A stretch of DNA of 64,000 nt from an uncultured bacterium (lineage in GTDB: Bacteria > RBG-13-66-14 > B26-G2 > WVWN01): contig CAZLXP010000001.1 of the NCBI GenBank assembly GCA_964563535.1, positions 423 to 64,422 of the forward strand. Direction: 5' to 3'. The stretch's first letter is position 1. Every line of letters starts with the position of its first letter. Made by a program: the position numbers and the translations under genes. Positions 21,748 through 36,577 of the stretch are shown piece by piece. Under the pieces are notes generated by a model. The model saw only the letters and a list, made by a program, of their open reading frames with translations, did no database searches and was not told the origin of the DNA.

Positions 21748-22713
21748 ATGAGGAATTATATTTCAGCAACAGCGATCGTGATAACGCTCGCGTTGACCGC
21801 GCCCGCCGTCGGCGACTGGGTCTACGAGGGCAAGTGGGGCTCGCTGGGCTCGGGTAACAGCCAGTTTAACCAACCGGCCGGCGTCGCCGTCGCCCCCGCT
21901 AGCAATAACGTCTACGTAGCCGACCAGTATAACCACCGCATCCAATACTTCACCGCCACCGGCTCCTACCTCGGCCAGTGGGGTTCGTACGGCACGGGTA
22001 ACGGCCTGTTAAATCGCCCGTACGGCTTAGTCGTCGCCCCCGCGAGCGGCAACGTCTACGTCGCTGATTTCTACAACCACCGCGTCCAATACTTCACCGC
22101 CACCGGCTCCTACCTCGGCCAGTGGGGTTCGCGCGGCTCGGGTAACGGCCAGTTTAATTGGCCGATGGGCGTCGCGGTCGCCCCCGCGAGTGGCAACGTC
22201 TACGTCACCGATGGCGGCAACAACCGCATACAATATTTCACCGCCACCGGCTCCTACCTCGGGCAGTGGGGTAGTTCCCTTTTACCGGAATTAGGCGTCG
22301 TCGTCGCCCCCGCGAGCGGTAACGTCTACGTAGCGGATTTCCGGAACAACCGCGTCCAATACTTCACCGCCACCGGCTCCTACCTCGGCCAATGGGGCTC
22401 CGTCGGCACGGGTAACGGCCAGTTCAACGGCCCGGACGACGTAGACGTCGCCCCGGGGGGCGACGTCTACATCAGCGATTACGGCAACGACCGCATCCAA
22501 TACTTCACGGCGAGCGGCTCCTACCTCGGCAAGTGGGGCTCAAGCGGGTCGGGCAACGGCCAGTTCAACCGCCCCGTCGGAGTATGTTTCAACGTCGGCG
22601 GCACGCGCTTCTACGTCGCCGAAATGTCGGGCGCACGCATCCAATATTTCAAATGGGTCAACACAACCATTGCCCCCGCCTCCCTCGGCCGTGTGAAGGC
22701 ATTATTTAAATAA
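21748..22713 (+). CDS. Secreted NHL-repeat beta-propeller protein (copy B).
   Basis: GAGGAGGAA RBS. MRNYISATAIVITLALTAPAVGDWVYEGKWGS..., six NHL blades, C-terminus ...WVNTTIAPASLGRVKALFK. Confidence 0.8.
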   Translation: MRNYISATAIVITLALTAPAVGDWVYEGKWGSLGSGNSQFNQPAGVAVAPASNNVYVADQYNHRIQYFTATGSYLGQWGSYGTGNGLLNRPYGLVVAPASGNVYVADFYNHRVQYFTATGSYLGQWGSRGSGNGQFNWPMGVAVAPASGNVYVTDGGNNRIQYFTATGSYLGQWGSSLLPELGVVVAPASGNVYVADFRNNRVQYFTATGSYLGQWGSVGTGNGQFNGPDDVDVAPGGDVYISDYGNDRIQYFTASGSYLGKWGSSGSGNGQFNRPVGVCFNVGGTRFYVAEMSGARIQYFKWVNTTIAPASLGRVKALFK

Positions 22714-22732: not shown

Positions 22733-22759
22733 AAGGCGGCCGTCGGGCCGCCTTTTTTT
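22733..22759 (+). terminator. Rho-independent terminator after NHL copy B.
   Basis: The sequence aaGGCGGCCGtcggGCCGCCttttttt forms a GC stem with a T7 tract. Confidence 0.7.
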
Positions 22760-22862
22760 GGGTTAATTTTGTGTCACCCCCACCGCGAGTTGCGCTTAAC
22801 TGCCGGCAATAGCCCGTAACGTCCGGAGGGGCTTAACTCGTATAAAACACAGGCAGTTGCGC
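22760..22862 (+). repeat. About 100-bp repeat element, copy 1. It is the inverted partner of 24949-25042.
   Basis: gttaattttgtgtcacccccaccgcgagttgcgcttaactgccggcaatagcccgtaacgtccggaggggcttaactcgtataaaacacaggcagttgcgcg is about 85% identical to the reverse complement of 24949-25042. Both copies sit immediately 3' of a terminator. Confidence 0.65.
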
Positions 22863-23485
22863 GATTTTAGTTGCGGTTATTAGATTCGTCAAAAACGGCC
22901 GGTTTAAAATTTAATCTCCGCGCAACGTAGGGCATTCTCGCAAGCCTTTTTTTCTTGTATTCATTAGGCCCGGTTAAAAAGCCTCGGCTATTCCGTTTTT
23001 AACGCCCCTTTGGGGCCACCACGGGCCCCGCCCCCGGCGCGCGTCCTGGCCACACGCCCTCGTGCGTCCTGTGCCGTCCCGGGGCCGCCCGCCGCTCCGC
23101 CTCGGCCTCGTAGCTCCGGCCGTATTTTACCGTCTTATTCGGCGGGGGGCCCCCGCAACATCGCCGCCAGTAGTTGCGCCTCGCGCGTACCGGCCCGCGC
23201 CGCGATGACGTCTACCAGCAAGCTCCGTTTCACCTTCAACTGCGGCTGGCGTTCAACCACGCTATACGGTGGGCCGCCGCAACATTCGCCGGCTATGTCG
23301 TTTAGAAGTTTCTGCAGCCATAGGACGTCCCAAAACAGAAACCCGGCGACCTCGGATAGCGTATATTCGTCTCGCACCTCAACCTCCGCTGTAGTTTGCT
23401 CCCTGTCATTTTAGTCTACGATAATGTCCTTTAAGTTAGACAACGGTCGCGGCCACCTTCCGGGCGCCGGCGAGGTCGTTAAGGT

Positions 23486-24457
23486 TTATTTAAACAACGC
23501 CTTCACCCGGCCGAGGGAGGCGGGCGCAACGGCGTACTCCGTATCCTTGAAATATTGGACGCGGTCGTTAAGCTCGTCCGCTATATAAGCCCGGGGGCCC
23601 TTTACAGTTATACCCCCAGGTTTATTGAATTCGCCGTTACCCGTCCCGGACTTCCCCCACTTCCCGAGGAAGGACCCGGTAGCCGTGAAATACTGGACGC
23701 GGTGGTTGTTCAGGTCGGTCACGAGGACCGTTCCGTTCGGCAAAAAGGCCACGTCGCAGGGGCAATCGAACTCGCCGTCGCCGGTACCCTTCGAACCCCA
23801 CTTGCCCAGGAAGCTGCCCGCCCCCGTGAAGTATTGGACGCGGTGGTTCATAGAATCGGCTACGTAGACCTTACCGTCTAGTGAGAAACCTACGCCGTCG
23901 GGGTTATAGAATTCGCCGTCGCCGGAACCCAACGAGCCCCACTTGCCGAGGAAGGTTGCTTTCGAACCGCTCACCTTGAAGTATTGAATGCGATGGTTGC
24001 CGGTATCCGCTACGTAAATGTTACCGCCGGGCGCGACAGCTATACCCCGAGGGCCGTTGAATTCACCGTCGCCCGAACCCTGCGAGCCCCACCCGCCGAC
24101 GTACGAGCCGGTCTGGGTAAAGAACTGGACGCGATGGTTGCCCCGTTCGGTTACGTAGAGGTCGCCCCTAGACCCAGGGGCAACGCCCACCGGTTCGATA
24201 AACTGGCCGCTGCCGGTCCCAGGCGTACCCCATTTGCCCCTAAAGGACCCGTTTTCGCTGAAGTATTGGACGCGATGGTTAGTGGAATCGACGACGTAAA
24301 TTAAGCCGTTGGCGCCGACGGCGACGTCGGTGGGGATTTGGAATTCGCCATTACCCGTACCGCGCTTGCCCCATTGGCCTTCGTAGACCCAAGCTCCGTA
24401 GACCGCGGCGGCCGCCAGCGCCAAAACCGCAACCGTTAAAAATGCCCTGCGTTTCAT
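23486..24457 (-). CDS. Secreted NHL-repeat beta-propeller protein (copy C, the most divergent).
   Basis: MKRRAFLTVAVLALAAAAVYGAWVYEGQWGKRGTGNGEFQ...; six NHL blades; C-terminus ...YAVAPASLGRVKALFK. Confidence 0.8.
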   Translation of the reverse strand: MKRRAFLTVAVLALAAAAVYGAWVYEGQWGKRGTGNGEFQIPTDVAVGANGLIYVVDSTNHRVQYFSENGSFRGKWGTPGTGSGQFIEPVGVAPGSRGDLYVTERGNHRVQFFTQTGSYVGGWGSQGSGDGEFNGPRGIAVAPGGNIYVADTGNHRIQYFKVSGSKATFLGKWGSLGSGDGEFYNPDGVGFSLDGKVYVADSMNHRVQYFTGAGSFLGKWGSKGTGDGEFDCPCDVAFLPNGTVLVTDLNNHRVQYFTATGSFLGKWGKSGTGNGEFNKPGGITVKGPRAYIADELNDRVQYFKDTEYAVAPASLGRVKALFK

Positions 24458-24709
24458 TTCCCTCTCCTTTGACGTTAATGGTTACCCAGTATGATTCAAC
24501 CTTGTACCGCTTCTCAGGCGCCGCCTCGAAGCCGCTCTTCACCGAGCAGTACGGCCGGTTGTAGCGCCTCAAAAAAACTTTCCCGTCCCGGCGCCTGAGC
24601 GACGCGATGGTATTATACAACACGTCGTTCATTGGGACAACTCTTGTTTCGTTGTTCTTCGAGTCGACGACGCGGAGCTGGCGGCGCGTATAATATTTAA
24701 AGTGGTCTT

Positions 24710-24889
24710 ATGAAAATAACGGTTAAGTTGGTCCCGGCGGAGGAAGGCGGGTATACGGTGTATATCCCGGCGTTGCCCGGATGCATTAGCGAGGGCGATA
24801 CGCGCGAGGAGGCGCTGGCCAACATCAAGGAGGCGTTAGCGTTATACCTCGAGCCGGGGTGGCGGAACAGGCAGACGCAGCGGACTTAA
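24710..24889 (+). CDS. hicB: HicB-like (UPF0150) type II antitoxin, 59 aa. It is absent from the ORF track because it is under 60 aa.
   Basis: Manual translation: MKITVKLVPAEEGGYTVYIPALPGCISEGDTREEALANIKEALALYLEPGWRNRQTQRT. This matches the HicB/UPF0150 signature (YxAxxPxLPGCxxxGxTxEEAxxNxxEAxxL). A TATAAT-like -10 element lies at 24688-24693. No hicA partner was identified nearby. Confidence 0.7.
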   Translation: MKITVKLVPAEEGGYTVYIPALPGCISEGDTREEALANIKEALALYLEPGWRNRQTQRT

Positions 24890-24948
24890 AATCTTAAACG
24901 AGCCGTTTTCGACGAATCGAATAGGGGTAACGAAAATCGCGTAAAGAC

Positions 24949-25042
24949 CTGTGTTTTATGAGAGTTAAAGCGCTCCGGACATTACCGACTATTACTGGCA
25001 GTTCAGGGCAATTCGCGGTGGGTGTGACACAAAATTAACACA
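24949..25042 (-). repeat. About 100-bp repeat element, copy 2 (inverted relative to 22760-22862). A minus-strand terminator at 25043-25075 (AAAAAAGGCACGCTCGTCGGGCGCCTTTTTT) ends the 25094-25522 gene.
   Basis: See 22760-22862. The two copies bracket a 2.1-kb segment carrying ORF 23135-23377, NHL copy C and hicB. Confidence 0.65.
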
Positions 25043-25093
25043 AAAAAGGCGCCCGACGAGCGTGCCTTTTTTATTAAACTTCAACGACTACGA

Positions 25094-25522
25094 TCAGCTA
25101 CTAGGGGCCACGTGTCTTTCCGAAAAAGATTTAACCGCTCTAAGATCCGCCCTTATTTTTCTCCGATCGTCCCGGCGGGGAATCCAAGTCGGGTCGTACC
25201 TAGCGCCGCGGCCGTATTGGTATAACCTATCGTAAGCGATATAAACATCTTCCCCGTAATTCGCGTTGACTACCTCAAGCATTTTTCCATGCTTACCGTA
25301 CTTTAAACTCATAATACCCTCAATTAAACCATCTTTACAGAGACAAGCGTTAACGTAATGAAGGGCCGAATAGAAATATGATATGAATGCCCAGATTAAA
25401 TTACCCGCCCCTTCACATGTGTTTTCGCCAAATAGCCGGTCAGACTCGGCTCGGCGGTAATAATCATCGACTGAATATTTATTGGTTTCCGGCGACATAT
25501 AATTCCCGCCAAGCCGGACCAA
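25094..25522 (-). CDS. Hypothetical protein (142 aa). Last gene of a three-gene low-GC operon.
   Basis: The ORF is intact and its stop is followed by a strong terminator. GC is lower than the flanking DNA. No motif recognised. Confidence 0.4.
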   Translation of the reverse strand: MVRLGGNYMSPETNKYSVDDYYRRAESDRLFGENTCEGAGNLIWAFISYFYSALHYVNACLCKDGLIEGIMSLKYGKHGKMLEVVNANYGEDVYIAYDRLYQYGRGARYDPTWIPRRDDRRKIRADLRAVKSFSERHVAPSS

Positions 25523-25985
25523 TTAGCGAATAAGGATCCGCGTCTTCGTTTGGGTGGTATATAAAATCGTATTGGTAACGTAACTCGCCCCGTAATACTC
25601 TGAAAGCTCTTAAAATAGCGTCCTCATCATCGGGGTCCCAGTATTTAATAAATACCCAGATTTCGTTGTTAGCACCGCCTAATTTAAAAGCTTCAAATAC
25701 TTTATCTACGGATTTAATCGGGGCAAAATAATCCCGCGCGATTGCCGTTAAATCCGAGGCGAAAAGTTCGGGGCGGGTTTCTTTGATATCGACTATAACG
25801 GGTGTTCTAGTCTCGGGGGATATCGTAGCCAAACCCCAAAGCATTTGATCGTCGGGGCCGAGTAAGAAATAACCTCGCTTTAACATCCCTAATTGTGTAA
25901 GAACCGCCGATAACCGGTCCGCCGTTGGAGGATGCCTCGTATCTCCGGAAGGCGCTAGGATAACTTTTTGGATATTATTTTCCAT
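25479..25985 (-). CDS. Hypothetical protein (168 aa). Middle gene of the low-GC operon.
   Basis: Overlaps its neighbours by a few codons, suggesting translational coupling. No motif recognised. Confidence 0.4.
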   Translation of the reverse strand: MENNIQKVILAPSGDTRHPPTADRLSAVLTQLGMLKRGYFLLGPDDQMLWGLATISPETRTPVIVDIKETRPELFASDLTAIARDYFAPIKSVDKVFEAFKLGGANNEIWVFIKYWDPDDEDAILRAFRVLRGELRYQYDFIYHPNEDADPYSLIGPAWRELYVAGNQ

Positions 25986-26298
25986 TTTCCCTCTTTACTT
26001 GTTTTTCCTTATACTTACGATAATTCTCCGCTAAAGCGAAGATGAATTTTTCCATAAAAGCTGGGGTGCAAGCTATGCGGTATTTTATCCGAGCTTCGAT
26101 CGCACCTGCTTGTAATACGCGTTGTAAATCTTCGTCGTAAGGTTGAGGAATATCGCAAAAATCAACCGTAAATTCGTTTGGGCCATGGTTGACACGCGCG
26201 TAGTTAACATATTCCCGAGTTCGACCGTCCGGGTTTATCACCTTGATCGTAACGTCGGTTTCCTCAGGATCAGTCGGCTTGGCTGTTTCAGACACCAT
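25975..26298 (-). CDS. DUF3467-like small protein (107 aa). First gene of the low-GC operon.
   Basis: YVNYARVNHGPNEFTVDFCDIP...AIEARIKYRIACTPAFMEKFIFALAENYRKYKEK resembles the DUF3467 core (yaN.a.v.hs..EF.ldFg ... ak.L...L.e.l..YE). Confidence 0.45.
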   Translation of the reverse strand: MVSETAKPTDPEETDVTIKVINPDGRTREYVNYARVNHGPNEFTVDFCDIPQPYDEDLQRVLQAGAIEARIKYRIACTPAFMEKFIFALAENYRKYKEKQVKRENGK

Positions 26299-27155
26299 TA
26301 CTCCACCTCGGCGTTAAGACGCGAGGGTTAGCCCGGCTAACGTTTAATCGTGTATAGAATTCGGGGGAGAATACGCCCTTATTTTACTTAAATAGCCTTC
26401 GATTTTCAAGTATTTTTTTAGATGTAGAACCCCAACATCGCTACCCATTATAATAGGGTTATTCAATCGCGACACTCACCCCCGCAAACGCCGTCGCGCC
26501 TTCGATGCCGTAACCGCCCTTCATAATTTACCACATTACCAACCCTTGTGCAAGGTTTTTTGCCGTTTTTCAACCGTCAGGAAAACCTTTCGGCCCAAGG
26601 GCTTAATGCGCGTCTACGATCGCGTCGACGGCGCGCCACAGCTTTCCGAGGTCGGCGAGCGGTAACTCTGCGGCGTTGGCAAGATCACGGATCCTATACC
26701 CGAGGGCCTGTTCGCTCGAAAAGGCGAGGGTCTCGGCACGCTTTTCACGGGCGTAAAGCGTGCCGTCCGGAAAAAGGGCCCGAAGCTTAGCTCTTATGTT
26801 TTCAAGGAGCTCGTCGCGCTTCGGGCCTTCGTTATCCGCCATATTGCCACCGCCTTACTAATAACACGGTAACATGACCCGAGGCGCTAAGCTACTAAAA
26901 ATAGTACTAAGTCTTCCCCGCCATATACGTCTCGCCGGCGCGATCATGCTGTACGGACGCGTTCCAGGCGCCCCACCCGGCGTGGCCCTTGACGGTAAAG
27001 CCTTCGCCGTAGCCTCCCGCGACGCCCGGGCGCCGATGTTATAGCGTTTTTCGCGGCCCGGGTTAAGGCGCGGCGTCATTATTCTCCGGGGCGGCCATTT
27101 AAAAGTTGACACCGTTCCGCGGTTAAGTATATTATAGCGGCGAGGAGGAGGAGAT

Positions 27156-30035
27156 ATGGCGATACCCGAGATAGTCGAAACCCTTGTCGCGCGGTTCGCG
27201 AGGAACCGCGACCTCTATTGCGGGAGCGGTTACAAAGAGACCCAACTCCGCCGGGAGTTCCTCGACCCGTTCTTCGAGGCGCTGGGGTGGGACGTCGATA
27301 ACAAGCGCGGCGCGTCGCCGCTGTATCAGGACGTCGTTCACGAGTACGGCACAGACGTCGAGGGTTCTCAAAAGACCGCCGACTACGCCTTCCGCGTCGG
27401 CGAGAAAGTAAAGTTTTTCGCGGAGGCCAAAAAGCCCGGTACGCGCCTCAAAGACGACCCCACGCCGGCGCTTCAACTACGGCGCTATGCCTATTCCGCA
27501 AGTTTACCCCTTTCCATTTTAACGGACTTCGAAGAGTTCGCGGTGTACGACGGCCGCGTTCCGCCGAAGAAGGCCGACGCCGCCTCCCACGCCCGGGTCT
27601 TGTATTTTACCTACGACGAGTACCCGGAACGTTGGGAGGAGATCGCGGCCGTATTCTCGCGCGACGCCGTATGGCGCGGCGACTTCGACAAGTACGCCGA
27701 AAAAGCCGTCGGGGGAAAACACGAGCCGGTAGACAAGGCGTTCTTAAAACTCCTCGAGCGCTGGCGCGACGAGCTCGCCCGCAACGTCGCGAACCGGAAC
27801 CGCGAGAAGGAGCTGGACAAGTACGAACTGAGCGGGGCGGTACAGGCCATACTCGACCGGGTAATTTTCCTGCGGGTGGCGGAGGACCGGGGCATCGAGG
27901 GCCGCAGCCGCTTAGAGGCGCTGATGACCGGGGAGAACGTTTACGGCCGCCTGGTCGAGTTGTTCCTCGAGGCGGACGACGTTTACAACTCGGGGCTCTT
28001 TCACTTCCGCGAGGAGAAAGGGCGCGCCACCGCGCGCGACGAGCTCACGCTGACGCTGCACGTAGATGACGCCGTGTTGCGGAAAATCCTCCGGGAGCTA
28101 GCCGAAAGCCCCTACGAGTTCGGCGTCGTCCCGGTGGAAATACTCGGCCAGGTTTACGAGCAGTTCCTCGGCAAGACGATATGGCTCGACGGCCGCGGCG
28201 TCCACATCGACTACAAGGCGGAGGTCCGCAAGGCCAAGGGCGTTTATTACACGCCCCAATATATAGTGGAGTACATCGTCAAAAATACGGTGGGGGAGTT
28301 GTTGAAGGGATGCAAGACGCCGACGGAGGCCGCCAAGCTGAAAGTCCTCGACCCGGCCTGCGGCTCGGGCTCGTTCCTGCTGGGCGCGTATCAGCATCTA
28401 ATTAACTGGCACCTCGAGTGGTACGTCAACGACGGCCCGGCTAAGCACGAGGGCCGCCTCGTCGCGACCGCGGGGCCCGGGCCGGCTAGCTGGCGGCTCA
28501 CCGCCGCGGCTAAGAAAGACATACTCCTTAACAACATCTACGGCGTGGACATCGACCCGCAGGCGGTGGAGGTTACGAAGCTCTCGCTTCTCCTCAAGGC
28601 TTTGGAGGGCGAGAGCCGCGAGTCCGTCGGCGCGCAGACGAAGTTCCTGCGCGAGCGGATACTACCGGATTTGGGGGACAATATCAAGTGCGGCAACTCG
28701 CTCATAGGGTCCGACTATTTTGAGGGGGGACAGACATTAATGTCTGTCCCACCGGACGAAGAAGAACGCCGCCGCGTCAACCCGTTCGACTGGGAGGTGG
28801 AGTTCGAGGAGATAATGAAGGCGGGCGGCTTCGACGCGGTGATAGGCAACCCGCCGTGGGGTAGTACTTTTTCTGAAACCGAATTAGTTTACTTCCGGAA
28901 CGCTTTTAAAACGGCAACGGGTAAGGTAATAGATTCTTACGCGGTATTTATAGAAAAAGGGTTTTTAGTAACTAGCCATTCCGGCTTCATAAGCTACATT
29001 ACACCCGATACTTTTTTACAGAAGGACGATTATTACGTCCTTCGCGATTGGTTAACAGCAGAAGCTACAGTTTTAGATTTAATAGAAGCAGGGCCGTTAT
29101 TCCGTCAAGTACGGGATACGTGGGCCGCAGTTTGGGTTATTAAAAAAGACCGGCCTACTAAAAAACATATGATAAGTCGAAAACAAATTAGTAGGTTTAT
29201 TAAATCTGTCGAGGACCGCGGGGCGGAGTTCGAAAATGCGGATTTCGATACAATTGGGAATTTTTCGCAATATAAATGGCGAGAAGACCCAGATTTAATA
29301 TTAGGGTATTTACCTACGGGTGGGGCGCAAAATATTATTAAAAGAATGTGGCCCTATCCTAGGTTAGGCGAATTAGGTGATATGTATTCTATATCACGTG
29401 GCGAAGAAGGTAGTAAGTATCGGTTAAAAACGCATAAGAAGGGTAGCTATTTTATGGTGATACCGGAGAACGTCGAAAGATATTCCCTCGAACCCGGTAT
29501 AAGCGTAGTTAGTAATACTCTAACCCCTAATAAGATAAGTTCGGTTTATTCGAAACCCAAAATTTGGATTATTAGAATACAAAAAATGAGATGGTTGCAG
29601 AGATTGGTATGTACGTTAGATACCCGGGATAATTCGGCGGGCATGAAAACTCTACAATCGATAGTATCTAACGAGGGTGATACTAAGCGATTATTATATT
29701 TATTGGGCCTCATGAATTCGAAATTATTTAATTATTGGTGCGTTAATTATTTAAGCGATGATATGAACCAGGCGTATCTTTCAAAGTTACCGATCGCCGG
29801 ATTAGATCGTTCTAACCCCGCCGATGTCGCCCGGCACGACAAGATGGTGGCGTTGGTGGAGGAGATGCTCGCGTTGCACAAACGCGTCGCCGCCGCCAAA
29901 TCGGACGCCGACAAGCAACGCCTCCAGCGCGCCATCGACGTTACGGATAAGAAGATCGATACGTTGGTTTACGAGCTCTACGGTTTGACGGATGAGGAGG
30001 TCGAAGTAGTCGAGGGAACGCAAACGAAGGTATAA
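27156..30035 (+). CDS. Type IIG restriction-modification enzyme (fused PD-(D/E)xK endonuclease + gamma-class N6-adenine methyltransferase, Eco57I/MmeI-like).
   Basis: GGAGGAGGAG RBS. N-terminus YKETQLRREFLDPFFEALGWDVDNK with a D...EAK nuclease motif (TADYAF...FFAEAKKPG). Methyltransferase motif I LDPACGSGSFLLGA, then motif IV VIGNPPWGS. The C-terminal ~65 aa (DKMVALVEEMLALHKRVAAAKSDADKQRLQRAIDVTDKKIDTLVYELYGLTDEEVEVVEG) is the unit repeated downstream. Confidence 0.85.
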   Translation: MAIPEIVETLVARFARNRDLYCGSGYKETQLRREFLDPFFEALGWDVDNKRGASPLYQDVVHEYGTDVEGSQKTADYAFRVGEKVKFFAEAKKPGTRLKDDPTPALQLRRYAYSASLPLSILTDFEEFAVYDGRVPPKKADAASHARVLYFTYDEYPERWEEIAAVFSRDAVWRGDFDKYAEKAVGGKHEPVDKAFLKLLERWRDELARNVANRNREKELDKYELSGAVQAILDRVIFLRVAEDRGIEGRSRLEALMTGENVYGRLVELFLEADDVYNSGLFHFREEKGRATARDELTLTLHVDDAVLRKILRELAESPYEFGVVPVEILGQVYEQFLGKTIWLDGRGVHIDYKAEVRKAKGVYYTPQYIVEYIVKNTVGELLKGCKTPTEAAKLKVLDPACGSGSFLLGAYQHLINWHLEWYVNDGPAKHEGRLVATAGPGPASWRLTAAAKKDILLNNIYGVDIDPQAVEVTKLSLLLKALEGESRESVGAQTKFLRERILPDLGDNIKCGNSLIGSDYFEGGQTLMSVPPDEEERRRVNPFDWEVEFEEIMKAGGFDAVIGNPPWGSTFSETELVYFRNAFKTATGKVIDSYAVFIEKGFLVTSHSGFISYITPDTFLQKDDYYVLRDWLTAEATVLDLIEAGPLFRQVRDTWAAVWVIKKDRPTKKHMISRKQISRFIKSVEDRGAEFENADFDTIGNFSQYKWREDPDLILGYLPTGGAQNIIKRMWPYPRLGELGDMYSISRGEEGSKYRLKTHKKGSYFMVIPENVERYSLEPGISVVSNTLTPNKISSVYSKPKIWIIRIQKMRWLQRLVCTLDTRDNSAGMKTLQSIVSNEGDTKRLLYLLGLMNSKLFNYWCVNYLSDDMNQAYLSKLPIAGLDRSNPADVARHDKMVALVEEMLALHKRVAAAKSDADKQRLQRAIDVTDKKIDTLVYELYGLTDEEVEVVEGTQTKV

Positions 30036-30084
30036 AGACCGTACCGGTAAATAATAAACTGGAAATAACGAAACGAGGTATGAG

Positions 30085-30918
30085 GTGGAAAACCTACCGT
30101 TAACGTTAAAGGAATATTTTAAAACCAAGGCGGTTAAAGGCATAACTATACTAAATGACGGCGCAGGGGAAACGTTCCCTCTATCCGGTGTTATTACCTA
30201 CGGCGCTATATTATTCGCCGACCTTCCGGGTTTTTCTAAACGGTTAGCCGAATACCCGGAACCCGGATACGGTTTATTCCTAGCTAACTTATTTTTCGCT
30301 TGGTTTAAAGGGGAACACGTTTATAAATTCGGCGGGTTATTAGATAAGTACATCGGGGATGAAATTATGATGGTTTTCCCTGCCGATACTTGCGACGGAT
30401 TACCCCTAAAAGCGGCTTTGTCTGCGGCGCGACGTTTTATTGATTATGACGTTTGGGATTTTAGGCCTCGCGTAGGCGTAGCGGTTGGGGATTTCGTAAT
30501 CGGTATAGTAGGACCTTTGGAAAAGGATTATGACGATAATTTTCGCTTGACCGATATAACAGCAGTCGGGAATACCGTTAATATAGCCGCTAGGTGCGTA
30601 CAAACGTTGGGGAACAATAAAACGGTTCGAGTCGCGACTTCTGATATCGAGTTAGTCCGAACCGTTTTCCCTTCACGGCCGAGTAGCAATGGAGGACACA
30701 TAAGAAGGGACGTTTGGAATATAGATGGGCCTAAAGAGGTAGAAGCGAAAAATGTTGGTTGCATTACGGTCATAGATATCGAAAACCCTTCCATTTGGGG
30801 CCCATTGATGGGATTTTCTAACGGCAAGGCCAAGGACCGGGAAACTGAATTACACGAACAATATACCCAAGGGATTAATTACGCTTTAGATAAAGGGACC
30901 GTCGTTAACGATAAATAA
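30085..30918 (+). CDS. Stand-alone class III nucleotidyl cyclase (adenylate/guanylate-cyclase catalytic-domain family), 277 aa.
   Basis: Cyclase motifs: ILFADLPGFSK, GDEIMMVF, VGVAVGDFVIGIVGP, TAVGNTVNIAARC. It has no sensor or TM domains. It sits 50 bp after the RM gene stop. Confidence 0.7.
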   Translation: MENLPLTLKEYFKTKAVKGITILNDGAGETFPLSGVITYGAILFADLPGFSKRLAEYPEPGYGLFLANLFFAWFKGEHVYKFGGLLDKYIGDEIMMVFPADTCDGLPLKAALSAARRFIDYDVWDFRPRVGVAVGDFVIGIVGPLEKDYDDNFRLTDITAVGNTVNIAARCVQTLGNNKTVRVATSDIELVRTVFPSRPSSNGGHIRRDVWNIDGPKEVEAKNVGCITVIDIENPSIWGPLMGFSNGKAKDRETELHEQYTQGINYALDKGTVVNDK

Positions 30919-30930
30919 AATTAGAGTCCC

Positions 30931-31135
30931 CTACGCCGCCCGGCACGACAAGATCGTGGCGTTGGTGGAGGAGATGCTCGAGCTGCACAAACGCGTCGTC
31001 GCCGCCAAATCCGATACGGACAAAAAACGCCTCGAGCGCGCGATAAACGCCACCGACGGCAAAATAGACGCGCTGGTCTACGAGCTATACGGTTTGAGCG
31101 AGGAAAATATAAAGACCGTAGTAAGTAAATTATAA
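30931..31135 (+). repeat. R1: direct copy of the RM-gene 3' end (about 205 bp; encodes ...RHDKIVALVEEMLELHKRVVAAKSDTDKKRLERAINATDGKIDALVYELYGLSEENIKTVVSKL plus stop). A GC hairpin follows at 31136-31158.
   Basis: Direct nucleotide alignment to 29830-30035, about 80% identity. Same orientation as the RM gene. Confidence 0.85.
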
Positions 31136-31167
31136 GGGCGGCTTTCGCCGCCCCCCATTTTTAGACC

Positions 31168-31335
31168 TTACCCGGGTTTACATTCTTCGCACGGTTTATA
31201 CCCTTGGCCTTTTGCATACGACCTTTTTACCGTACGACGGTTAATAGGTTTTATATTATCTACCCATTTACAACCGGGTTTGTGGTACCGGCTATCCTCT
31301 TGTTTATCTGTAGAGATTATTACGTCGGGGTCCAT
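31168..31335 (-). CDS. Small Ada-type zinc-ribbon domain protein (55 aa). Not in the ORF track.
   Basis: AAGGAGGTG RBS. Manual translation MDPDVIISTDKQEDSRYHKPGCKWVDNIKPINRRTVKRSYAKGQGYKPCEECKPG matches the Ada_Zn_binding pattern YH.p.C...(n)...A...GyrPC..C.P. Confidence 0.5.
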   Translation of the reverse strand: MDPDVIISTDKQEDSRYHKPGCKWVDNIKPINRRTVKRSYAKGQGYKPCEECKPG

Positions 31336-31416
31336 AAAATCACCTCCTTTATCTTTATGGTTTTTGGTTGTCGGCGTTTCCTCTTACGGAAGCTTTTTAA
31401 AATTCCGACCGGAAAA

Positions 31417-31548
31417 TCATTTCTTTTTAGGGGTCTGGGATAAAGCGCTTCCGGCTGCCGTTTTACTTGGCTTAGAGGTCCGCCCGTCCCGTAGAACTTT
31501 CGAAGCCGCGGATGCCGCTTTCGGGCTTGTTACCTTTCCTTTCGTCAT
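31417..31548 (-). CDS. Small Lys/Ser/Ala-rich protein (43 aa). Not in the ORF track.
   Basis: AGGAGGTG RBS. MTKGKVTSPKAASAASKVLRDGRTSKPSKTAAGSALSQTPKKK. It lies upstream of, and is co-oriented with, the Ada-like mini-gene. Confidence 0.35.
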   Translation of the reverse strand: MTKGKVTSPKAASAASKVLRDGRTSKPSKTAAGSALSQTPKKK

Positions 31549-31657
31549 AATAACACCTCCTTCTTTTAGGTTTTTAATTACATTATAGTATTATAAAAAA
31601 AATCCGTCTAATACGCAATACATATTTCGGCATCCACCGAAGTCGTACCAACGAACG

Positions 31658-31857
31658 ACGTCGCCCGGTACGACAAGATGGTCGCGTTGGTGGAGGAGAT
31701 GCTCGCTCTCCACAAGCGCCTAAGTGTCGCCAACGCCGACGCGGATAAGAAAATGCTCCAACGCGCCATCGACGTTACGGATAAAAAGATCAACGCGCTG
31801 GTGTACGAATTATACGGTTTGACGGCTGAGGATATAAAAATTATGGAGTCGTCGTAG
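31658..31857 (+). repeat. R2: direct copy of the RM-gene 3' end (about 200 bp; ...VARYDKMVALVEEMLALHKRLSVANADADKKMLQRAIDVTDKKINALVYELYGLTAEDIKIMESS plus stop). A palindromic hairpin, GGTCTTAAGACC, follows at 31858-31884.
   Basis: Alignment to 29826-30035. Confidence 0.85.
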
Positions 31858-31946
31858 GGGACGGTCTTAAGACCGGCCCGCCTTGGGTTTTTAAGATATG
31901 TCGGGTTTGGTGGCACGGCCTAAAGGCCGCGCCCTACGAAAACCCC

Positions 31947-32037
31947 CGCCGCCACCGACCGCAAGATCGACGCGCTGGTCTACGAGCTATACGGCTTGAC
32001 CGATGAGGAGATAAAAATAGTAGAGGGTTCTATTTAA
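31947..32037 (+). repeat. R2b: short direct copy of the RM-gene 3' end (about 90 bp; AATDRKIDALVYELYGLTDEEIKIVEGSI plus stop).
   Basis: Alignment to 29940-30035. Its stop lies 4 nt before the ATG of the 32042 gene. Confidence 0.85.
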
Positions 32038-32041
32038 AACG

Positions 32042-32707
32042 ATGTTCTATGAATTAATACACTTTAAAATTAGCCCTATATTACTATTAACTCTGGGCTT
32101 ATCTTCCGAGTTTTTAGGCACCTTTTTAATTGCCGTGGACGCCGTCGCAATAAAAGAGTTCCTTTTAAAATTCCGATCCGATGTTTTTTATGAAAAACGC
32201 AGGGCCGATTTAGCGATTACTAAGTTTATTAATAGGTCTATTGCTTTTATTGTTTTCGGAACCGTTTTCGCCATAGTAACTACCGCGATTGGTTTAGATC
32301 TAGTACTTGCCTTGTTGCTCGCCCCATTAGGTTTTATTATACACCGTTTAATATCACGCATTCTTGGCCGGTTTTATTCACTAGTCCGTGTTCATCCGCC
32401 TAAATTGCGGGGGGGATGTATCTTAAAACCCTTATCGATTTTTATATGGCTATTATGGTTTATAGGCCTTTTGCTAACGTTTACCATATATATAGGTTTC
32501 GACATTGGTTTTGTTGTTGTGGTGTATGGGCTTAGCGAAAAATATTTAAAGCCTTTGGTGATAAAATTTTTCGATTATTTCAGCGAAAAGTGCATTAAGA
32601 AAGGCGAATCGTGGTTTCTTAAGTCATATATCATTACGGGGATTCTATTAATATTATTTGGGTTCTTATATCAAATTACGGGCACTATTCTAATTGCTTT
32701 ATATTAA
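32042..32707 (+). CDS. Polytopic membrane protein (about 5-6 TM helices), low GC, 221 aa.
   Basis: Hydrophobic helices ILLLTLGLSSEFLGTFLIAV, IAFIVFGTVFAIVTTAIGLDLVLALLLAPLGFII, IFIWLLWFIGLLLTFTIYIGFDIGFVVVVYG, IITGILLILFGFLYQITGTILIALY. No soluble domain recognised. Confidence 0.5.
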   Translation: MFYELIHFKISPILLLTLGLSSEFLGTFLIAVDAVAIKEFLLKFRSDVFYEKRRADLAITKFINRSIAFIVFGTVFAIVTTAIGLDLVLALLLAPLGFIIHRLISRILGRFYSLVRVHPPKLRGGCILKPLSIFIWLLWFIGLLLTFTIYIGFDIGFVVVVYGLSEKYLKPLVIKFFDYFSEKCIKKGESWFLKSYIITGILLILFGFLYQITGTILIALY

Positions 32708-32764
32708 TACCTGGTCCTATAGAAAATACGCGCTACGCGTGCCCCTCGGTCGTAACGCCGCGGC

Positions 32765-32855
32765 TGTCGCCGCGGCCCCCGATATCGACGCGCTGGTCTA
32801 TGAGCTGTACGGCCTGACCGATGAGGAGATAAGGATCGTGGAGGGGGCGAAGTAA
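32765..32855 (+). repeat. R3: short direct copy of the RM-gene 3' end (...DIDALVYELYGLTDEEIRIVEGAK plus stop).
   Basis: Alignment to 29950-30035. Confidence 0.8.
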
Positions 32856-32869
32856 AAGGAAACGGCTTT

Positions 32870-33364
32870 ATGTGGGATTGGTTACTAAAACACGTTCCCG
32901 AGTTAACCGCTTTGTCTACGGTTATTATGGCCGCGGCTACTACTATCGTAGCAGCCGCTACCGCGGTTTACGCGTTTTTAACTAATAAGTCATTAGCGCA
33001 GTCGAGGAAGGCCGTCACGGCTACCACCTTACCTTTACTCGCACTGCAGGAAGATACCTTTGGCGCTAATTACCCGCAATTAATATTCGTGAACCTGAAG
33101 AATAATGGATTTGGGCCGGCTTTAGAAATTCGACCTGAAATACAGGGGAATCCGGTCGGGTTTCATGTTTTAATTAAAAAACGTAGTTTGGGCCCGGGCG
33201 ATAGTTTAACGTTAGAAATAATAGGAGACCCCCATAAAGTAATCGATTATTCGGGAGTTTTGCGAGTTCGCGTATATTACCGGGCGATATTTGGCGTCGT
33301 ATACGAGTTATTGTTTGGTTTTTCCATTGATTCTCGCATCGTGGCTTTAATTCGCGTAGATTGA
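32870..33364 (+). CDS. Hypothetical protein with one N-terminal TM helix and a beta-rich C-terminal domain (164 aa).
   Basis: AAGGAAA RBS. N-terminal hydrophobic segment LTALSTVIMAAATTIVAAATAVYAFL. No motif recognised. Confidence 0.4.
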   Translation: MWDWLLKHVPELTALSTVIMAAATTIVAAATAVYAFLTNKSLAQSRKAVTATTLPLLALQEDTFGANYPQLIFVNLKNNGFGPALEIRPEIQGNPVGFHVLIKKRSLGPGDSLTLEIIGDPHKVIDYSGVLRVRVYYRAIFGVVYELLFGFSIDSRIVALIRVD

Positions 33365-33378
33365 AATAACGCAATATA

Positions 33379-33558
33379 GTGGCGTTGGTGGAGGAGATGC
33401 TCGCTCTCCACAAGCGCCTCGCCGCCGCCAAATCGGACGCCGACAAGAAAACGACCTAGCGCGCCATCGCCGCCACCGACCGTAAGATCGATGCCCTGGT
33501 CTACGAGCTGTACGGTTTGACGGATGAGGAGATAAGGATCTTGGAGGAATCTAGTTGA
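33379..33558 (+). repeat. R4: direct copy of the RM-gene 3' end (about 180 bp) carrying an internal TAG at 33457-33459 (...DADKKTT*RAIAATDRKIDALVYELYGLTDEEIRILEESS plus stop).
   Basis: Alignment to 29850-30035. The terminal TGA overlaps the ATG of the DUF3800 gene (ttgATGccg). Confidence 0.85.
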
Positions 33559-34277
33559 TGCCGTTATACCGGATTTATATCGACGAAGTCGGGAACCACG
33601 ACTTAAGGCACGCCGAGGATATTAATGAACGTTTCCTCTCTCTGACGGGGGTAATTATCGCCTCCGCTACTATAAGGAACGTCGTAGCCCCGGAGATGGT
33701 GCGATTAAAAGAGGAAGTGTTCGAGCCCGACCCTGACGAACCGGTAATATTTCACCGAAGGGACATCGTAAAAAGACGGGGTCCTTTTAAAATATTAGAC
33801 GAACCTGATAAACGCCGCGCTTTCGATGAAGCGTTGATAGCCGCTTTGACTCGGTGGGAATACAACGTCGTTACCGTAGTGATCGATAAACTAGCGCACC
33901 GCGACCAGTATAAAGTATGGATAGCGCACCCGTACCATTATTGCTTGCAGGTTTTGCTCGAAAGGTTTTTATTGTTTCTACAAGACCACGACGGCCATGG
34001 AGACGTCATGGTCGAAAGTCGGGGCGGTAAAGAGGATAAAAAACTAAAGGATTCCTTTCGAAGGCTATATAACCAAGGTACCGTTTGTATCGGGGCCGGT
34101 GATTTTCACCGTAGGTTTACTTCGGCCGAGTTGAAAGTAAAACCCAAAGCGGCTAACGTAGCGGGCCTTCAAATTTCAGATTTGGTTGCGTACCCCTCGC
34201 GCCGGGAAATCCTCCACGAACGGGTTTTTAAACGCCCGGAATTTCGACATTTAGCGACCGCGTGGTACGGATATTGA
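33555..34277 (+). CDS. DUF3800-family protein (240 aa).
   Basis: N-terminal LYRIYIDEVGNHDL matches the DUF3800 signature (YxIYIDESG...). The rest is a mixed alpha/beta soluble protein. Confidence 0.55.
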   Translation: MMPLYRIYIDEVGNHDLRHAEDINERFLSLTGVIIASATIRNVVAPEMVRLKEEVFEPDPDEPVIFHRRDIVKRRGPFKILDEPDKRRAFDEALIAALTRWEYNVVTVVIDKLAHRDQYKVWIAHPYHYCLQVLLERFLLFLQDHDGHGDVMVESRGGKEDKKLKDSFRRLYNQGTVCIGAGDFHRRFTSAELKVKPKAANVAGLQISDLVAYPSRREILHERVFKRPEFRHLATAWYGY

Positions 34278-34460
34278 TCGGCGGCAAATATTTACGTAGC
34301 CCGAGAACCGGGGATATATGGGGTTACGGAAAAAAGATGTTGCCGTAGAAAAAGGCCCCTTTCGGGGCCCCCGATGGACTTACCGCCCATCCACCTCCGC
34401 TAAACGGATTACTTATATAATACCCTATTACCACGAAATGTCAAGGGGTTTTTTAGCGTT

Positions 34461-34652
34461 CCCTGCCACGACACGATGGTGGCGTTGGTGGAGGATATGC
34501 TCGAGTTGCACAAGCGCCTCGCCGCCAAATCCGACGCCGACAAGCAGCGCCTCCAGCGCGCCATAAACGCCACCGACCGCAAGATCGACGCGCTGGTCTA
34601 CGAGCTGTACGGTTTGACAGATGAAGAGATAAGGATCGTGGAGGGTTCATAA
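34461..34652 (+). repeat. R5: direct copy of the RM-gene 3' end (about 190 bp; ...HDTMVALVEDMLELHKRLAAKSDADKQRLQRAINATDRKIDALVYELYGLTDEEIRIVEGS plus stop).
   Basis: Alignment to 29840-30035. The next gene's ATG lies 4 nt after a double TAA. Confidence 0.85.
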
Positions 34653-34655
34653 TAA

Positions 34656-35273
34656 ATGTTCGGGTTTATCTATTCTATAATTAAAGACGCGATCCGTTTA
34701 TTCCAATCGTTAGCCCCGGGTATTTCTATAACCTATAATGGTACAAGGTATTTCGCAAACCCGGGCCGTCTAATTTTTATGTTCAACGTAATGAATACCA
34801 AAAGAGATGACTTAAACCAATGCGCGCCTTGGTCATTAGTTATTAGTGATAAAAAGCCCGAACCGCTCGAAGCCGCGATGGCTAACTGGAATCTTAGGGA
34901 ATCACCTGATTATAATTATGAAGGCGGCGGCGGCCGTTATATTACTTTGAAAGGGAAATCCATACAAGAAGCGTGGTTCGAAATGTTTATTGACCCGGCG
35001 CCGTCGGTACAACATGGTGGTACGGAGCATTTTTTATTCCCGTTCGATGAAGATCCGGGGGATTACTTGCTTGCGTTGGTCATCTCATCCGGAAACAGCA
35101 AGTATTCTAAAGTAGTACGTTTTAAAATAAACGAGCGTATCGAACCTTACGACGATTTCGAATCGGTTATGTTTAAAACCGCGATTTCCGAAAATTTTAA
35201 GTCGAGCCTAAGGCAGCGCGCCCGGAATATTATTAAAAAAGTAGATTATTACGAATTAGTCAGGCCTTATTAA
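34656..35273 (+). CDS. Hypothetical soluble protein (205 aa).
   Basis: Intact ORF immediately 3' of R5. No motif recognised. Confidence 0.4.
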   Translation: MFGFIYSIIKDAIRLFQSLAPGISITYNGTRYFANPGRLIFMFNVMNTKRDDLNQCAPWSLVISDKKPEPLEAAMANWNLRESPDYNYEGGGGRYITLKGKSIQEAWFEMFIDPAPSVQHGGTEHFLFPFDEDPGDYLLALVISSGNSKYSKVVRFKINERIEPYDDFESVMFKTAISENFKSSLRQRARNIIKKVDYYELVRPY

Positions 35274-35321
35274 ACTTTTTTCAACGATAACGACTACCGG
35301 GCCGTTTTTTATCCGGTTTCC

Positions 35322-35369
35322 CGCCTGACCGACGAGGAGATAAAGATCGTGGAGGGGGCGGGGTCGTAG
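35322..35369 (+). repeat. R6: very short direct copy of the RM-gene 3' end (LTDEEIKIVEGAGS plus stop). A GGCCTTCAGGCC hairpin follows at 35370-35392.
   Basis: Alignment to the last ~45 nt of the RM gene. The stop-plus-hairpin is near-identical to that of R2 (tcgtaggggacggYctt..agRccggccc). Confidence 0.75.
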
Positions 35370-35422
35370 GGGACGGCCTTCAGGCCGGCCCAAAGTATCG
35401 TAATTATATAAAGGAGGAAAAA

Positions 35423-35824
35423 ATGCAGTTTCCCGACCGAACCGAGGCGATTATTATCCACGCGCGTTTGGCACGGGAAGCCGAAACGAAAGGCGATTTC
35501 GCCCTCGCGCGGTTATCTTATTTCAAATGGGTCGAATCGCTCCGGCAACAGAACGTTAACACCGGGGGCGCGTTAGAAAAGGATCTAGCTGCCGCTCAAA
35601 GGGCTTATTCCGCATTTGCGGGCCGAGACCCCCTTTACCTTAAAATATGTGGCGACGTCCTTTCCTATATCGCGAGTCATCCAGGCGTATTACAAACAGA
35701 CCTCTATAAAGAATTCCCCGCGTTTTCGCAGGAGGATTTACGGTATGCCCTCTATTTCGCGGGCGACCACGGTAAAATTAAACGCGAGAAGAAAGGTCGG
35801 ACGTATACCTTAACTGCGGCGTAA
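35423..35824 (+). CDS. Hypothetical protein (133 aa).
   Basis: AAAGGAGGAAAAAATG RBS. Co-oriented with the phosphatase-like gene 20 bp downstream. Confidence 0.4.
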   Translation: MQFPDRTEAIIIHARLAREAETKGDFALARLSYFKWVESLRQQNVNTGGALEKDLAAAQRAYSAFAGRDPLYLKICGDVLSYIASHPGVLQTDLYKEFPAFSQEDLRYALYFAGDHGKIKREKKGRTYTLTAA

Positions 35825-35843
35825 CCCGGATTCGGAGGTATTT

Positions 35844-36317: not shown

Positions 36318-36365
36318 TGCACCGCGAACGGTTCCGCCAGGGATAACGACTGCCTCGAGCGGGGC

Positions 36366-36461: not shown

Positions 36462-36490
36462 GGGCGAATGGCCATTCGCCCCTAGCCGGG

Positions 36491-36525: not shown

Positions 36526-36577
36526 TCGATGCCGGCCTATTCATAGGCCAGTTTTTTTTATTTAAATTCGGCTCGAG

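Follow-up and report, generated by a model that had tools for sequence, protein, structure and literature searches.

Inverted repeats around a gene-bearing segment of a few kilobases are found in invertons (the Hin/Gin-type and fim-type switches and the shufflons), where the repeats are short and nearly identical. MITEs and composite transposons also present short, non-coding repeats in inverted orientation. Integration of elements often leaves fragments of tRNA genes behind, and subsequent inversions may place these on opposite strands (PMC9897764). Bidirectional intrinsic terminators between convergent genes consist of a G+C-rich hairpin set between an A-tract and a T-tract. The locus described here shares traits with each of these systems. 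It lies in a 64,000-nt stretch of DNA, the whole of which is called the window below, from a lineage whose nearest named relative is a Zixibacteria MAG, with 79% identity in one regulator. Comparison of the DNA with itself indicates that the two arms of the repeat are very probably the tails of an old inverted duplication of an NHL gene unit, the right one of which was later cut off by an island. The case is a caution that a short inverted repeat bracketing genes can mimic a switch or a mobile element.

The first-pass annotation had described a 100-bp inverted element at 22760-22862 and 24949-25042, with about 85% identity. The element is real, but these coordinates cover only its outer 60%. 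A repeat search of the window placed the arms at 22754-22921 and 24880-25047, 168 nt that are 81% complementary without gaps. The pair matches at E = 4e-34 by blastn, which found no further full copy of the arm within the 64 kb beyond these two. When the arms are extended into the adjacent hairpins, self-blastn of the window aligns 22741-22921 with 25058-24880 (181 nt, 81%). The left arm (22741..22921, plus strand), delimited by the repeat search, blastn and self-blastn, is the 3' flank of the gene NHL-B. It is made up of the 3' half of a hairpin, a T-run, a 45-nt core (22754-22800), a body of about 108 nt and a scrap of tRNA sequence; this last part, 22907-22921, is the reverse complement of positions 27-41 in the anticodon arm of tRNA-Leu. 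The right arm (24880..25058, minus strand) consists of the same parts in inverted orientation, with its core at 25047-25001.

The arms are non-coding. Their 32 differences are spread 12/8/12 over the codon positions, and stops occur in all six frames. A small ORF of 26 codons in the right arm was considered and rejected, as in-frame stops interrupt it in the left arm and in L011, a related locus in another genome that is described below. The first 35 nt of the core are identical at 33 of 35 positions between the arms, versus about 77% elsewhere. The block GTTAATTTTGTGTCACNCCCACCGCGA is identical at 26 of 27 positions, and the extended arms share perfect runs of 25-33 nt. The internal direct repeat AGTTGCGC that had been attributed to the element is confined to the left arm, where it has two copies (22788 and 22855); the right arm lacks it, and it is therefore not a feature of the element.

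The earlier observation that each copy lies directly after a terminator holds, since both arms begin at the T-run of a terminator-like hairpin. The left hairpin, AAGGCGGCCGTCGGGCCGCCTT (22733..22754, folding z = -4.55), has the form of an intrinsic terminator on both strands and is identical to the hairpin of L011. It probably ends NHL-B on the plus strand, and by its sequence it could also terminate the transcript of NHL-C and ORF80 on the minus strand. The right-arm hairpin (25042..25072, with 25062-25050 on the minus strand; z = -3.86) is likewise bidirectional, preceded by an A-run and followed by a T-run, and would now end the 142-aa operon of the island on the minus strand and hicB' on the plus strand. 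Both are far more stable when folded than shuffled sequence is (z = -4.6 and -3.9). The predicted present role of the arms is transcription termination in both directions, with the hairpins as the putative active part.

The enclosed genes are as first described: an 80-aa ORF, the minus-strand gene NHL-C and a HicB-like ORF. NHL-C (23486..24457, minus strand) is an NHL paralogue that lies in the spacer separating two convergent NHL units. It had been taken for the only minus-strand NHL gene of the cluster, which is incorrect: the minus strand also carries NHL-D, the gene with which the right arm is truly paired. ORF80 (23135..23377, minus strand) encodes a small, nearly orphan protein with one homologue (54% identity) among 1.84 billion representatives, no matching family in family profile searches and a predicted structure whose confidence (pLDDT 59) is too low for a structural search. 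The HicB-like antitoxin ORF, hicB' (24710..24889, plus strand), had been called an orphan. A hicA is indeed missing, but the ORF is more than an orphan: its HicB homology stops at codon 47 (24850), and its last 12 codons are a translated fragment of tRNA-Leu.

The homology of the arms does not stop at the hairpins. The coding part of the left copy is NHL-B (21748..22713, plus strand), a gene for a six-bladed beta-propeller with the tail APASLGRVKALFK at its end; that of the right copy is NHL-D (36578..37417, minus strand), which has the same tail. Self-blastn of the window aligns NHL-B from 21976, where the homology begins, to 22712 with NHL-D at 37324-36579, in inverted orientation and with 77% identity over about 750 nt. 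Between the right-arm hairpin and the stop codon of NHL-D lies an 11.5-kb defence island (25067..36553), which has a GC content of 0.49 versus 0.59 on both flanks and carries, among other genes, a type IIG RM gene, a PycC-like cyclase and a DUF3800 gene. It is bounded by a 16-nt direct repeat on the plus strand, TTTTTTATTAAACTTC at 25067..25082 and TTTTTTATTTAAATTC at 36554..36569; the copies are identical at 14 of 16 positions, and 10 of 2000 shuffles align as well. When the island was deleted in silico, joining 25066 to 36554, blastn returned one collinear alignment of 964 nt (77%, E = 6e-149) that begins in the coding region, crosses the stop codon, the UTR and the hairpin, continues over core and body and ends at the scrap of the anticodon arm. 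This makes the right arm the original 3' flank of NHL-D.

Divergence is comparable along this alignment, with 77% identity in the genes and 81% in the arms. Against a common origin counts the short 3'-UTR piece between stop codon and hairpin, which aligns poorly between NHL-B and the island-less NHL-D. The present outer flank of the right arm has no similarity to the end of a tail-bearing gene, as expected if this flank is the island. We rejected the idea that it holds a decayed end of such a gene (VAPSS and a stop, compared with APASLG...): the alignment was not significant, and the true partner is NHL-D beyond the island. Similar duplications crowd the neighbourhood. NHL-B and NHL-E share 84.5% identity over 932 nt, and a second 3' module is common to 20370-20508 and 38980-39117. 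A simple ancient duplication, which the first-pass annotation had named as what would be left if its own proposals failed, is thus supported by self-blastn and by the island-deletion alignment. Its wording of a repeated 3'-UTR element is also apt as a description, each arm being the terminator and downstream spacer of a paralogous NHL gene.

The history that we infer would run as follows. A complete NHL gene unit would have been duplicated in inverted orientation long ago, and the arms would be its non-coding 3' ends. The unit would have comprised the gene with its C-terminal tail codons, a short 3'-UTR, the bidirectional hairpin, the 45-nt core, the spacer of about 108 nt and the tRNA-Leu(UAA) anticodon-arm scrap; NHL-B plus 22714-22921 would be the left copy and NHL-D plus 25066-24880 the right. 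The 2-kb bracketed segment would then be the spacer between two convergent paralogous genes, filled with debris of rearrangement (NHL-C, the orphan ORF, the truncated hicB and a tRNA fragment). Later, the island may have inserted into the 3'-UTR of NHL-D between stop codon and terminator, duplicating about 16 nt. This insertion would have stranded the right arm behind an island gene and given it its free-standing look. The repeat was open to being mistaken for a switch or a mobile element because the insertion hid the longer homology. The collinear homology, the boundaries of the island, the truncations of tRNA and hicB and the absence of mobile-element features are plain in the DNA. If the arm is indeed a duplication tail cut off by an 11.5-kb island, the locus records an ordinary rearrangement and holds neither a DNA switch nor a jumping element.

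The tRNA remnants add detail to the spacer and its surroundings. A 5' fragment of tRNA-Leu(UAA), positions 1-41, lies at 24853..24893 on the plus strand and is identical to a real tRNA-Leu(UAA) at 39 of 41 positions. The break falls in the 3' strand of the anticodon stem, after the first 2 nt; the fragment is fused to the truncated hicB, and its positions 27-41 are the inner end of the right arm. A further locus (37790..37905, plus strand) has a promoter, TTGACA-16-TAAACT, followed by positions 1-39 of the same tRNA (37832-37870); the anticodon loop marks their junction with a copy of the left-arm 3'-UTR and half-hairpin, and this copy, 37865-37901, is 92% identical to 22706-22742. The two loci thus have almost the same breakpoint in the tRNA, which hints at a site-preferring process and not at random decay. 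ARAGORN found no tRNA gene in the window, and a 3' half of the tRNA was also absent from it. The single T-loop-like site with a matching acceptor end, at 35529, lies inside an ORF and was discarded. A proposed remnant of tRNA positions 1-26 in the left arm was also discarded, as 1625 of 2000 shuffles score as well.

Among species-representative genomes, a 20-nt block of the core occurs in one other genome, at a partially related locus. In this locus, L011 (MAG GCA_964631855.1), the 3'-UTR, hairpin and 45-nt core, a non-coding module of 87 nt, follow an unrelated PD40 gene with about 91% identity, a value to be read against a genome distance that is uncalibrated. The 33/35 identity within the core and the match of about 91% to L011 are not predicted by pure neutral decay, and they count against a view that invokes duplication only. 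A match on a metagenome contig (L002), the single one of that scan, lies inside an ABC permease gene and is due to chance; viral contigs, plasmids and phages gave no match to the core. Nor is the core a general feature of tail-bearing genes, whose homologues in other genomes have unrelated 3' flanks.

The inverted repeats do flank the segment, and the first-pass annotation had proposed that it might be invertible or transposable. Inversion of the 2-kb segment, or of the region from 22.7 to 36.6 kb, could be site-specific at the near-identical 27-nt block or homologous through the arms or the NHL tails, with perfect runs available between the extended arms, and a flipped segment would set NHL-C in tandem with NHL-A and NHL-B. 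However, the ORFs scanned, those of the segment and its surroundings as well as others in the window, gave no recombinase (invertase or tyrosine recombinase), transposase or integrase in searches with Pfam, PHROGs, PADLOC and NCBIfam. Unlike those of invertons, the arms are long and 19% diverged, with no sign of homogenisation through repeated exchange; the segment holds neither a promoter nor a split gene that would gain from switching and give a switchable output; and L011 keeps the same core with no inverted partner within 20 kb. Exact-protein look-ups recovered no independent assembly of the locus. We consider inversion very unlikely. Two similar non-coding copies of about 170 nt around a gene-bearing segment would also suit a MITE pair or the ends of a composite or foldback transposon, but this reading is already contradicted and is scarcely credible. 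Terminal inverted repeats were not detected in the arms (499/1000 and 774/1000 shuffles score as well), target-site duplications are absent from the arms and the whole unit, whose flanking 12-mers are unrelated, and neither a transposase nor a parent IS is present nearby. Moreover, there are just two full copies in the window, the core matches elsewhere amount to one partial relative and one chance match, and the homology runs on into the flanking NHL genes. A genuine decayed IS at 40035-40443 shows what such a relic looks like. Ends of the attC or IS200/IS605 type, looked for by eye, were rejected too, as the unit ends do not pair and have no subterminal hairpin pattern. Another reading is integration into a tRNA gene: the arms would be what remains of the att-site arms of an integrative element, with recombination in the anticodon loop of tRNA-Leu(UAA) and positions 27-41 as the crossover. 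The arm homology begins exactly at the anticodon stem, the two tRNA fragments flank the island and NHL-D in direct orientation with breaks within 2 nt of each other, and TTAAA is found at all junctions. Integrative elements, however, reportedly preserve the 3' part of the tRNA and copy it, and the window holds 5' parts only. No integrase or excisionase family was found, the scanned island genes included, the stem is not restored by the sequence after the loop, and the boundary repeat of the island is a different sequence that lies in a 3'-UTR and not in a tRNA. We regard this origin as decidedly unlikely.

Other readings give the core a function. Each arm might be a paralogous small-RNA gene, transcribed outward from the strand opposite to that of the NHL gene and ending at the hairpin, with the core as its functional 3' domain. 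The inverted repeat would then be no more than a pair of such genes, which is compatible with an origin by duplication; this would agree with the core being the best-conserved part of the arm and common to L011, and with hairpins that are strong both ways. A sigma-70-like promoter, TTGACG-17-TAAAAT (22892..22864), reads into the left-arm core, and in L011 TTGCCG-17-TATATT (11013..10985) does the same, the neighbouring gene there having a separate terminator upstream of this promoter. The right-arm promoter is nevertheless degraded (TCGACG / GAAAAT), the distance from promoter to core differs between the two genomes, the left arm and L011 have a poor U-tail on that strand (UUAAUAAUU), and the 20-nt block is confined to the one other species-representative genome. 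No Rfam family matched the window at its gathering score, matches at E up to 10 being terminator-like and at chance level, and folding energies were no better than those of shuffled sequence (z from -0.3 to +1.7). A 10-bp hairpin with two compensatory pairs (element positions 31-41 / 62-72) was dropped as a candidate, since 36 of 400 random-substitution simulations (9%) gave a clean helix with at least two such pairs. The first-pass suggestion of a small-RNA element is thus left with no structural support from Rfam, folding or covariation, and with promoter hints that are weak; we hold it to be improbable. An outside chance also goes to the proposal that the hairpin and the 45-nt core TTTTTTGNNTTAATTTTGTGTCACNCCCACCGCGARTTGCNCTTAAC form a functional module, acting as an outward-read small RNA or a protein-binding site. 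It would travel between the 3' ends of different secreted beta-propeller genes with a PASLGRVKALF[KR] tail, spread by recombination at the conserved tail codons or at TTAAA, and constitute a lineage-specific 3'-end cassette of a Zixibacteria-like group instead of neutral debris. The anticodon loop of tRNA-Leu(UAA) is repeatedly broken at this TTAAA motif too. A functional core would be a new lineage-specific regulatory element, for which the evidence is thin.

The reading that we prefer, an inverted duplication of an NHL unit later split by an island, makes the locus a record of how variable regions arise in a lineage that has been sampled poorly. Three kinds of change can be seen: duplication, in tandem or inverted, of secreted NHL propeller genes with the terminators attached; entry of a defence island into a 3'-UTR close to a terminator, which duplicated 16 nt; and repeated breakage at the TTAAA that is common to the tRNA-Leu anticodon loop and the gene ends.

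Compared with known systems, the hairpins of both arms and of L011 resemble bidirectional intrinsic terminators in structure and in lying between convergent genes; unlike in such terminators, the 45 nt past the T-tract are also conserved here, which termination alone fails to explain. As in Islander-type islands (PMC4383910, PMC9897764), partial tRNA-Leu copies occur in an island-rich region and two of them in direct orientation bracket an island. The fragments here are 5' parts, whereas those of Islander-type islands are displaced 3' parts; the window has no intact tRNA partner and no integrase, and the boundary repeat of the island lies elsewhere. The closest likeness is to an inverted segmental duplication followed by acquisition of a genomic island. 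Homology is collinear from coding region to flank with similar divergence throughout (77-81%), and the island is compositionally distinct and bounded by short direct repeats. There is no essential difference; the distal tRNA-Leu 5' scrap and the better-conserved core are the oddities.

A repeat search of the window confirmed the inverted repeat reported by the first-pass annotation, and extended it: the arms, at 22754-22921 (left, in the 3' flank of NHL-B) and 24880-25047 (right), are 168 nt long, 81% complementary and 1958 nt apart. The arms align without gaps (arm against arm, blastn E = 4e-34), and self-blastn of the window stretched the match into the adjacent hairpins (22741-22921 against 25058-24880, 181 nt). 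No third copy was found by blastn in the 64 kb. As had also been described, each arm directly follows a terminator, starting at the T-run of a G+C-rich hairpin that in both arms is much more stable than shuffled sequence in either orientation (z = -3.9 to -4.6). An internal direct repeat, AGTTGCGC, had been listed as a feature of the element; it occurs twice in the left arm and not at all in the right arm, and therefore does not characterise the element. The arms do not code for protein: the 32 positions at which they differ split 12/8/12 by codon position, and stops occur in 6/6 frames. Taken in the orientation of its upstream gene, each arm consists of the hairpin 3' half with its T-run, a 45-nt core (first 35 nt 33/35 identical between arms), a body of ~108 nt (about 77% identity) and 15 distal nt that match tRNA-Leu(UAA) positions 27-41 in reverse complement (the anticodon loop with the 5' strand of its stem).

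On the right side the tRNA match extends further. Positions 24853-24893 correspond to tRNA-Leu(UAA) positions 1-41, with 39/41 identity to a real tRNA-Leu(UAA) on a plasmid record (ARAGORN call), and the fragment breaks off after the first 2 nt of the 3' anticodon-stem strand. Nothing else in 22700-25100 matched phage or plasmid collections. ARAGORN made no tRNA call in the window, no tRNA 3' half was present there, and the left arm showed no tRNA resemblance upstream of position 27. The enclosed hicB (24710-24889, + strand) had been called an orphan; hicA is indeed absent, but the gene itself is truncated, its homology with an intact hicB from a hicBA pair stopping at codon 47 (24850), and its final 12 codons are translated from the tRNA fragment. 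A third junction lies at 37790-37905, where a promoter (TTGACA-16-TAAACT) precedes tRNA-Leu(UAA) positions 1-39, 95% identical to the right-arm fragment. Here the anticodon loop abuts GGCTACGCTGGGATTATTAAGGCGGCCG, the 3'-UTR and half hairpin found after NHL-B at the left arm (92% over 37 nt). The tRNA 5' part, UTR-hairpin, core and body thus recur in varied combinations and orientations. TTAAA is present at all junctions and is common to the anticodon loop (CTTAAAA) and the end of the sequence coding for the C-terminal tail of the NHL proteins (TTTAAATAA). The conserved tail codons could be a recombination substrate.

Self-blastn also aligned NHL-B (21976-22712, + strand) with NHL-D (37324-36579, - strand) at 77%, among many other NHL-unit duplications that include flanks, such as NHL-B against NHL-E (84.5%). 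A low-GC island (25067-36553; GC 0.49 against 0.59 on both sides) exactly fills the gap from the NHL-D stop codon (36578) to the right-arm hairpin. It carries genes for a type IIG restriction-modification (RM) protein (PADLOC E = 5e-173), a PycC-like cyclase, DUF3800 and others, and is bordered by TTTTTTATTAAACTTC (25067-25082) and TTTTTTATTTAAATTC (36554-36569), whose mutual alignment was equalled by just 10 of 2000 shuffles. We removed the island in silico, joining 25066 to 36554. The result was a single collinear alignment of 964 nt (77%, E = 6e-149) spanning the NHL-B/NHL-D interior, tail, stop codon, UTR, hairpin, core, body and anticodon-arm scrap. This collinearity argues that the right arm is the original 3' flank of NHL-D, into whose 3'-UTR the island would have inserted later, and that the annotated repeat makes up the distal one-fifth of a ~1.15-kb inverted duplication. 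The present outer flank of the right arm, the end of the island 142-aa gene, shows no similarity to the end of a tail-bearing gene, which the later insertion would also explain. The likely history is unremarkable: a paralogous gene unit was long ago duplicated in inverted orientation, and the later insertion of a defence island made the result mimic a discrete element. A second, unrelated 3' module (20370-20508 and 38980-39117, 86% identity), made up of tail codons, another terminator and some 70 nt of flanking sequence, is common to a tail remnant upstream of NHL-A and the end of NHL-E; NHL units were therefore copied with flanks more than once. NHL-A itself (20591-21673) is apparently frameshifted, its ORF ending at 21355 and its tail (PASLGRVKALFK, then stop) lying at 21650-21673 in another frame; it is a pseudogene, or the assembly is wrong at this point.

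Further copies were sought with an exact pattern of the best-conserved core block. Among 185,579 species (one genome each) it occurred once, on contig CAZWAM010000053.1 (L001) of another MAG, and viral contigs yielded none; a lone metagenome-contig match fell inside an ABC permease gene and was rejected as chance. In that MAG and in a longer assembly of its genome (L011, GCA_964631855.1) the upstream gene is different: it encodes a 290-aa PD40 beta-propeller that also carries the C-terminal tail (VVPASLGQVRALFR). Downstream of it come a matching 3'-UTR (17/19 identical), the 22-nt hairpin without any change and, at 43/45 to the right arm, the 45-nt core. Similarity ends after the core, and genes for a small membrane protein, HSP20 and Lon follow. 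The 3' flanks of tail-bearing homologues in other genomes were unrelated to the arms. The core is more conserved than its surroundings, and the UTR-hairpin-core module lies 3' of genes without mutual homology in the two genomes. Its copies share about 91% identity, as a mosaic: the L011 hairpin equals that of the left arm, and its core is nearer the right-arm core. This pattern could be trivial if the two genomes are close relatives, or it could be a sign of selection or exchange. The lineage of the window has been sampled sparsely; a Zixibacteria MAG, with 79% identity in a sigma-54 regulator, is the closest relative that has a name. The tail is lineage-wide, ending six window genes (20373-20393, 21650-21673, 22687-22713, 23486-23512, 36578-36604 and 38983-39009) and 23 of the 120 listed NHL homologues, and no NCBIfam or Pfam model covers it. 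Its consensus, [IV][AT]P[AS]SLGRVKA[LI]FK before the stop, also ends the unrelated PD40 protein (L011 10826-10873). The tail may be a lineage-specific sorting signal.

An sRNA element had been among the suggestions. No Rfam match reached the gathering score, and relaxing the limit to E = 10 brought up nothing beyond terminator-like matches at chance level; both arms folded no better than shuffled sequence on either strand (z = -0.3 to +1.7). A 10-bp helix suggested by RNAalifold contained two compensatory pairs, with no pair broken. We introduced 32 random substitutions into the left arm in 400 simulations, and 36 of these gave a clean helix with two or more such pairs; a comparison of two sequences therefore provides no real structural support, and the helix was set aside. 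A small RNA read outward through the core from each arm would fit promoter-like sites facing the core in the left arm and L011, but the right arm has a degraded version of the site and the spacing differs between the two genomes, which together with the nil structural support makes a small RNA unlikely. In L011 (10960-11092) the opposite-strand site after the core is TTGCCG-17-TATATT (11013..10985), and beyond it lies a separate strong hairpin terminator of the adjacent 60-aa gene (11063-11081), so the core occupies a discrete interval of about 145 nt between two terminators. Judged from sequence, the arms most likely function as bidirectional intrinsic terminators; any role of the repeat as such is putative. 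At the left hairpin, NHL-B transcripts would end on one strand and those of NHL-C/ORF80 on the opposite one. The right hairpin would formerly have ended NHL-D; today it would end the leftmost island operon and, on the opposite strand, the truncated hicB transcript.

The first-pass annotation had offered an invertible or transposable segment. Perfect identity runs of 25-33 nt between the extended arms keep a rare homologous inversion conceivable, but the arms are 19% diverged, the core is kept in L011 without an inverted partner, and no recombinase of any kind was found by Pfam, PHROGs, PADLOC and NCBIfam among the ORFs of the segment, its neighbours and most large window ORFs; we regard invertibility as extremely unlikely. 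The arms have next to no chance of being a MITE pair or composite transposon, as they lack terminal inverted repeats and target-site duplications, number two in the window, and their homology carries on into the NHL genes. A real decayed IS at 40035-40443, unlike the arms, has 87-nt terminal inverted repeats (87% identical); by our reading it encloses an apparent DDE transposase C-terminus remnant (...WRREYNEVRPHSASNYRPPAPEAF), and a further 44-nt inverted match pairs 40173-40216 with 41475-41432. The tRNA pieces raise another origin, attachment-site remnants of an integrative element targeting tRNA-Leu(UAA). Integrative elements generally displace the tRNA 3' end, but the window fragments are of the 5' end. 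The anticodon-arm scrap common to both arms and the two direct 5' fragments do fit the pattern of tRNA gene fragments left as scars of element integration and later rearrangement (PMC9897764). However, no integrase was found among the ORFs scanned and the island's own boundary repeat is located elsewhere, and this origin is very unlikely.

The inverted duplication of the NHL unit is therefore preferred, and the more interesting material lies beside the repeat, in the island insertion signature and an array of displaced RM-gene 3' ends inside the island. More defence genes are stacked to the right of the NHL cluster, making a defence region of the window's whole right half. They include a CBASS-like pair at 41926-44538 (Cap17-like ATP nucleosidase, 41926-43467; SMODS cyclase, 43483-44538) and QueC-like, ResIII helicase, Schlafen/AlbA_2 and N6/N4 DNA methylase genes (45396-54425). 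A 130-nt direct repeat (55473-55602 and 62198-62325, 85% identical) has one copy directly on each side of a 2146-aa gene (55654-62094). The leftmost island operon (25094-26298), which the former NHL-D terminator would now terminate, encodes proteins of 142 aa (a weak HEPN-like match over the full length, E = 0.16) and 168 aa (no family) as well as a DUF3467 protein; a role in defence, or one like that of a toxin-antitoxin module, is possible. In the array, at 29822-36478, the terminal ~70 codons of the type IIG RM gene (...HDKMVALVEEMLALHKR...YELYGLTDEEI.IVEG, then stop) are repeated at least eight times in direct orientation at 64-94% identity (30931-31155, 31656-31880, 31926-32051, 32744-32869, 33354-33578, 34462-34669, 35310-35380 and 36353-36478). 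The cassette gene ahead of each copy is a different, unrelated one; among them are those for a PycC-like cyclase, membrane proteins and DUF3800. No integrase was seen in this array, and a literature search returned no description of serial cassette insertion into an RM gene 3' end. It looks as if cassettes were inserted serially into the 3' end of the RM gene, each rebuilding the end and displacing the old one, much as tRNA-targeting islands restore the end of their target and displace the old end.
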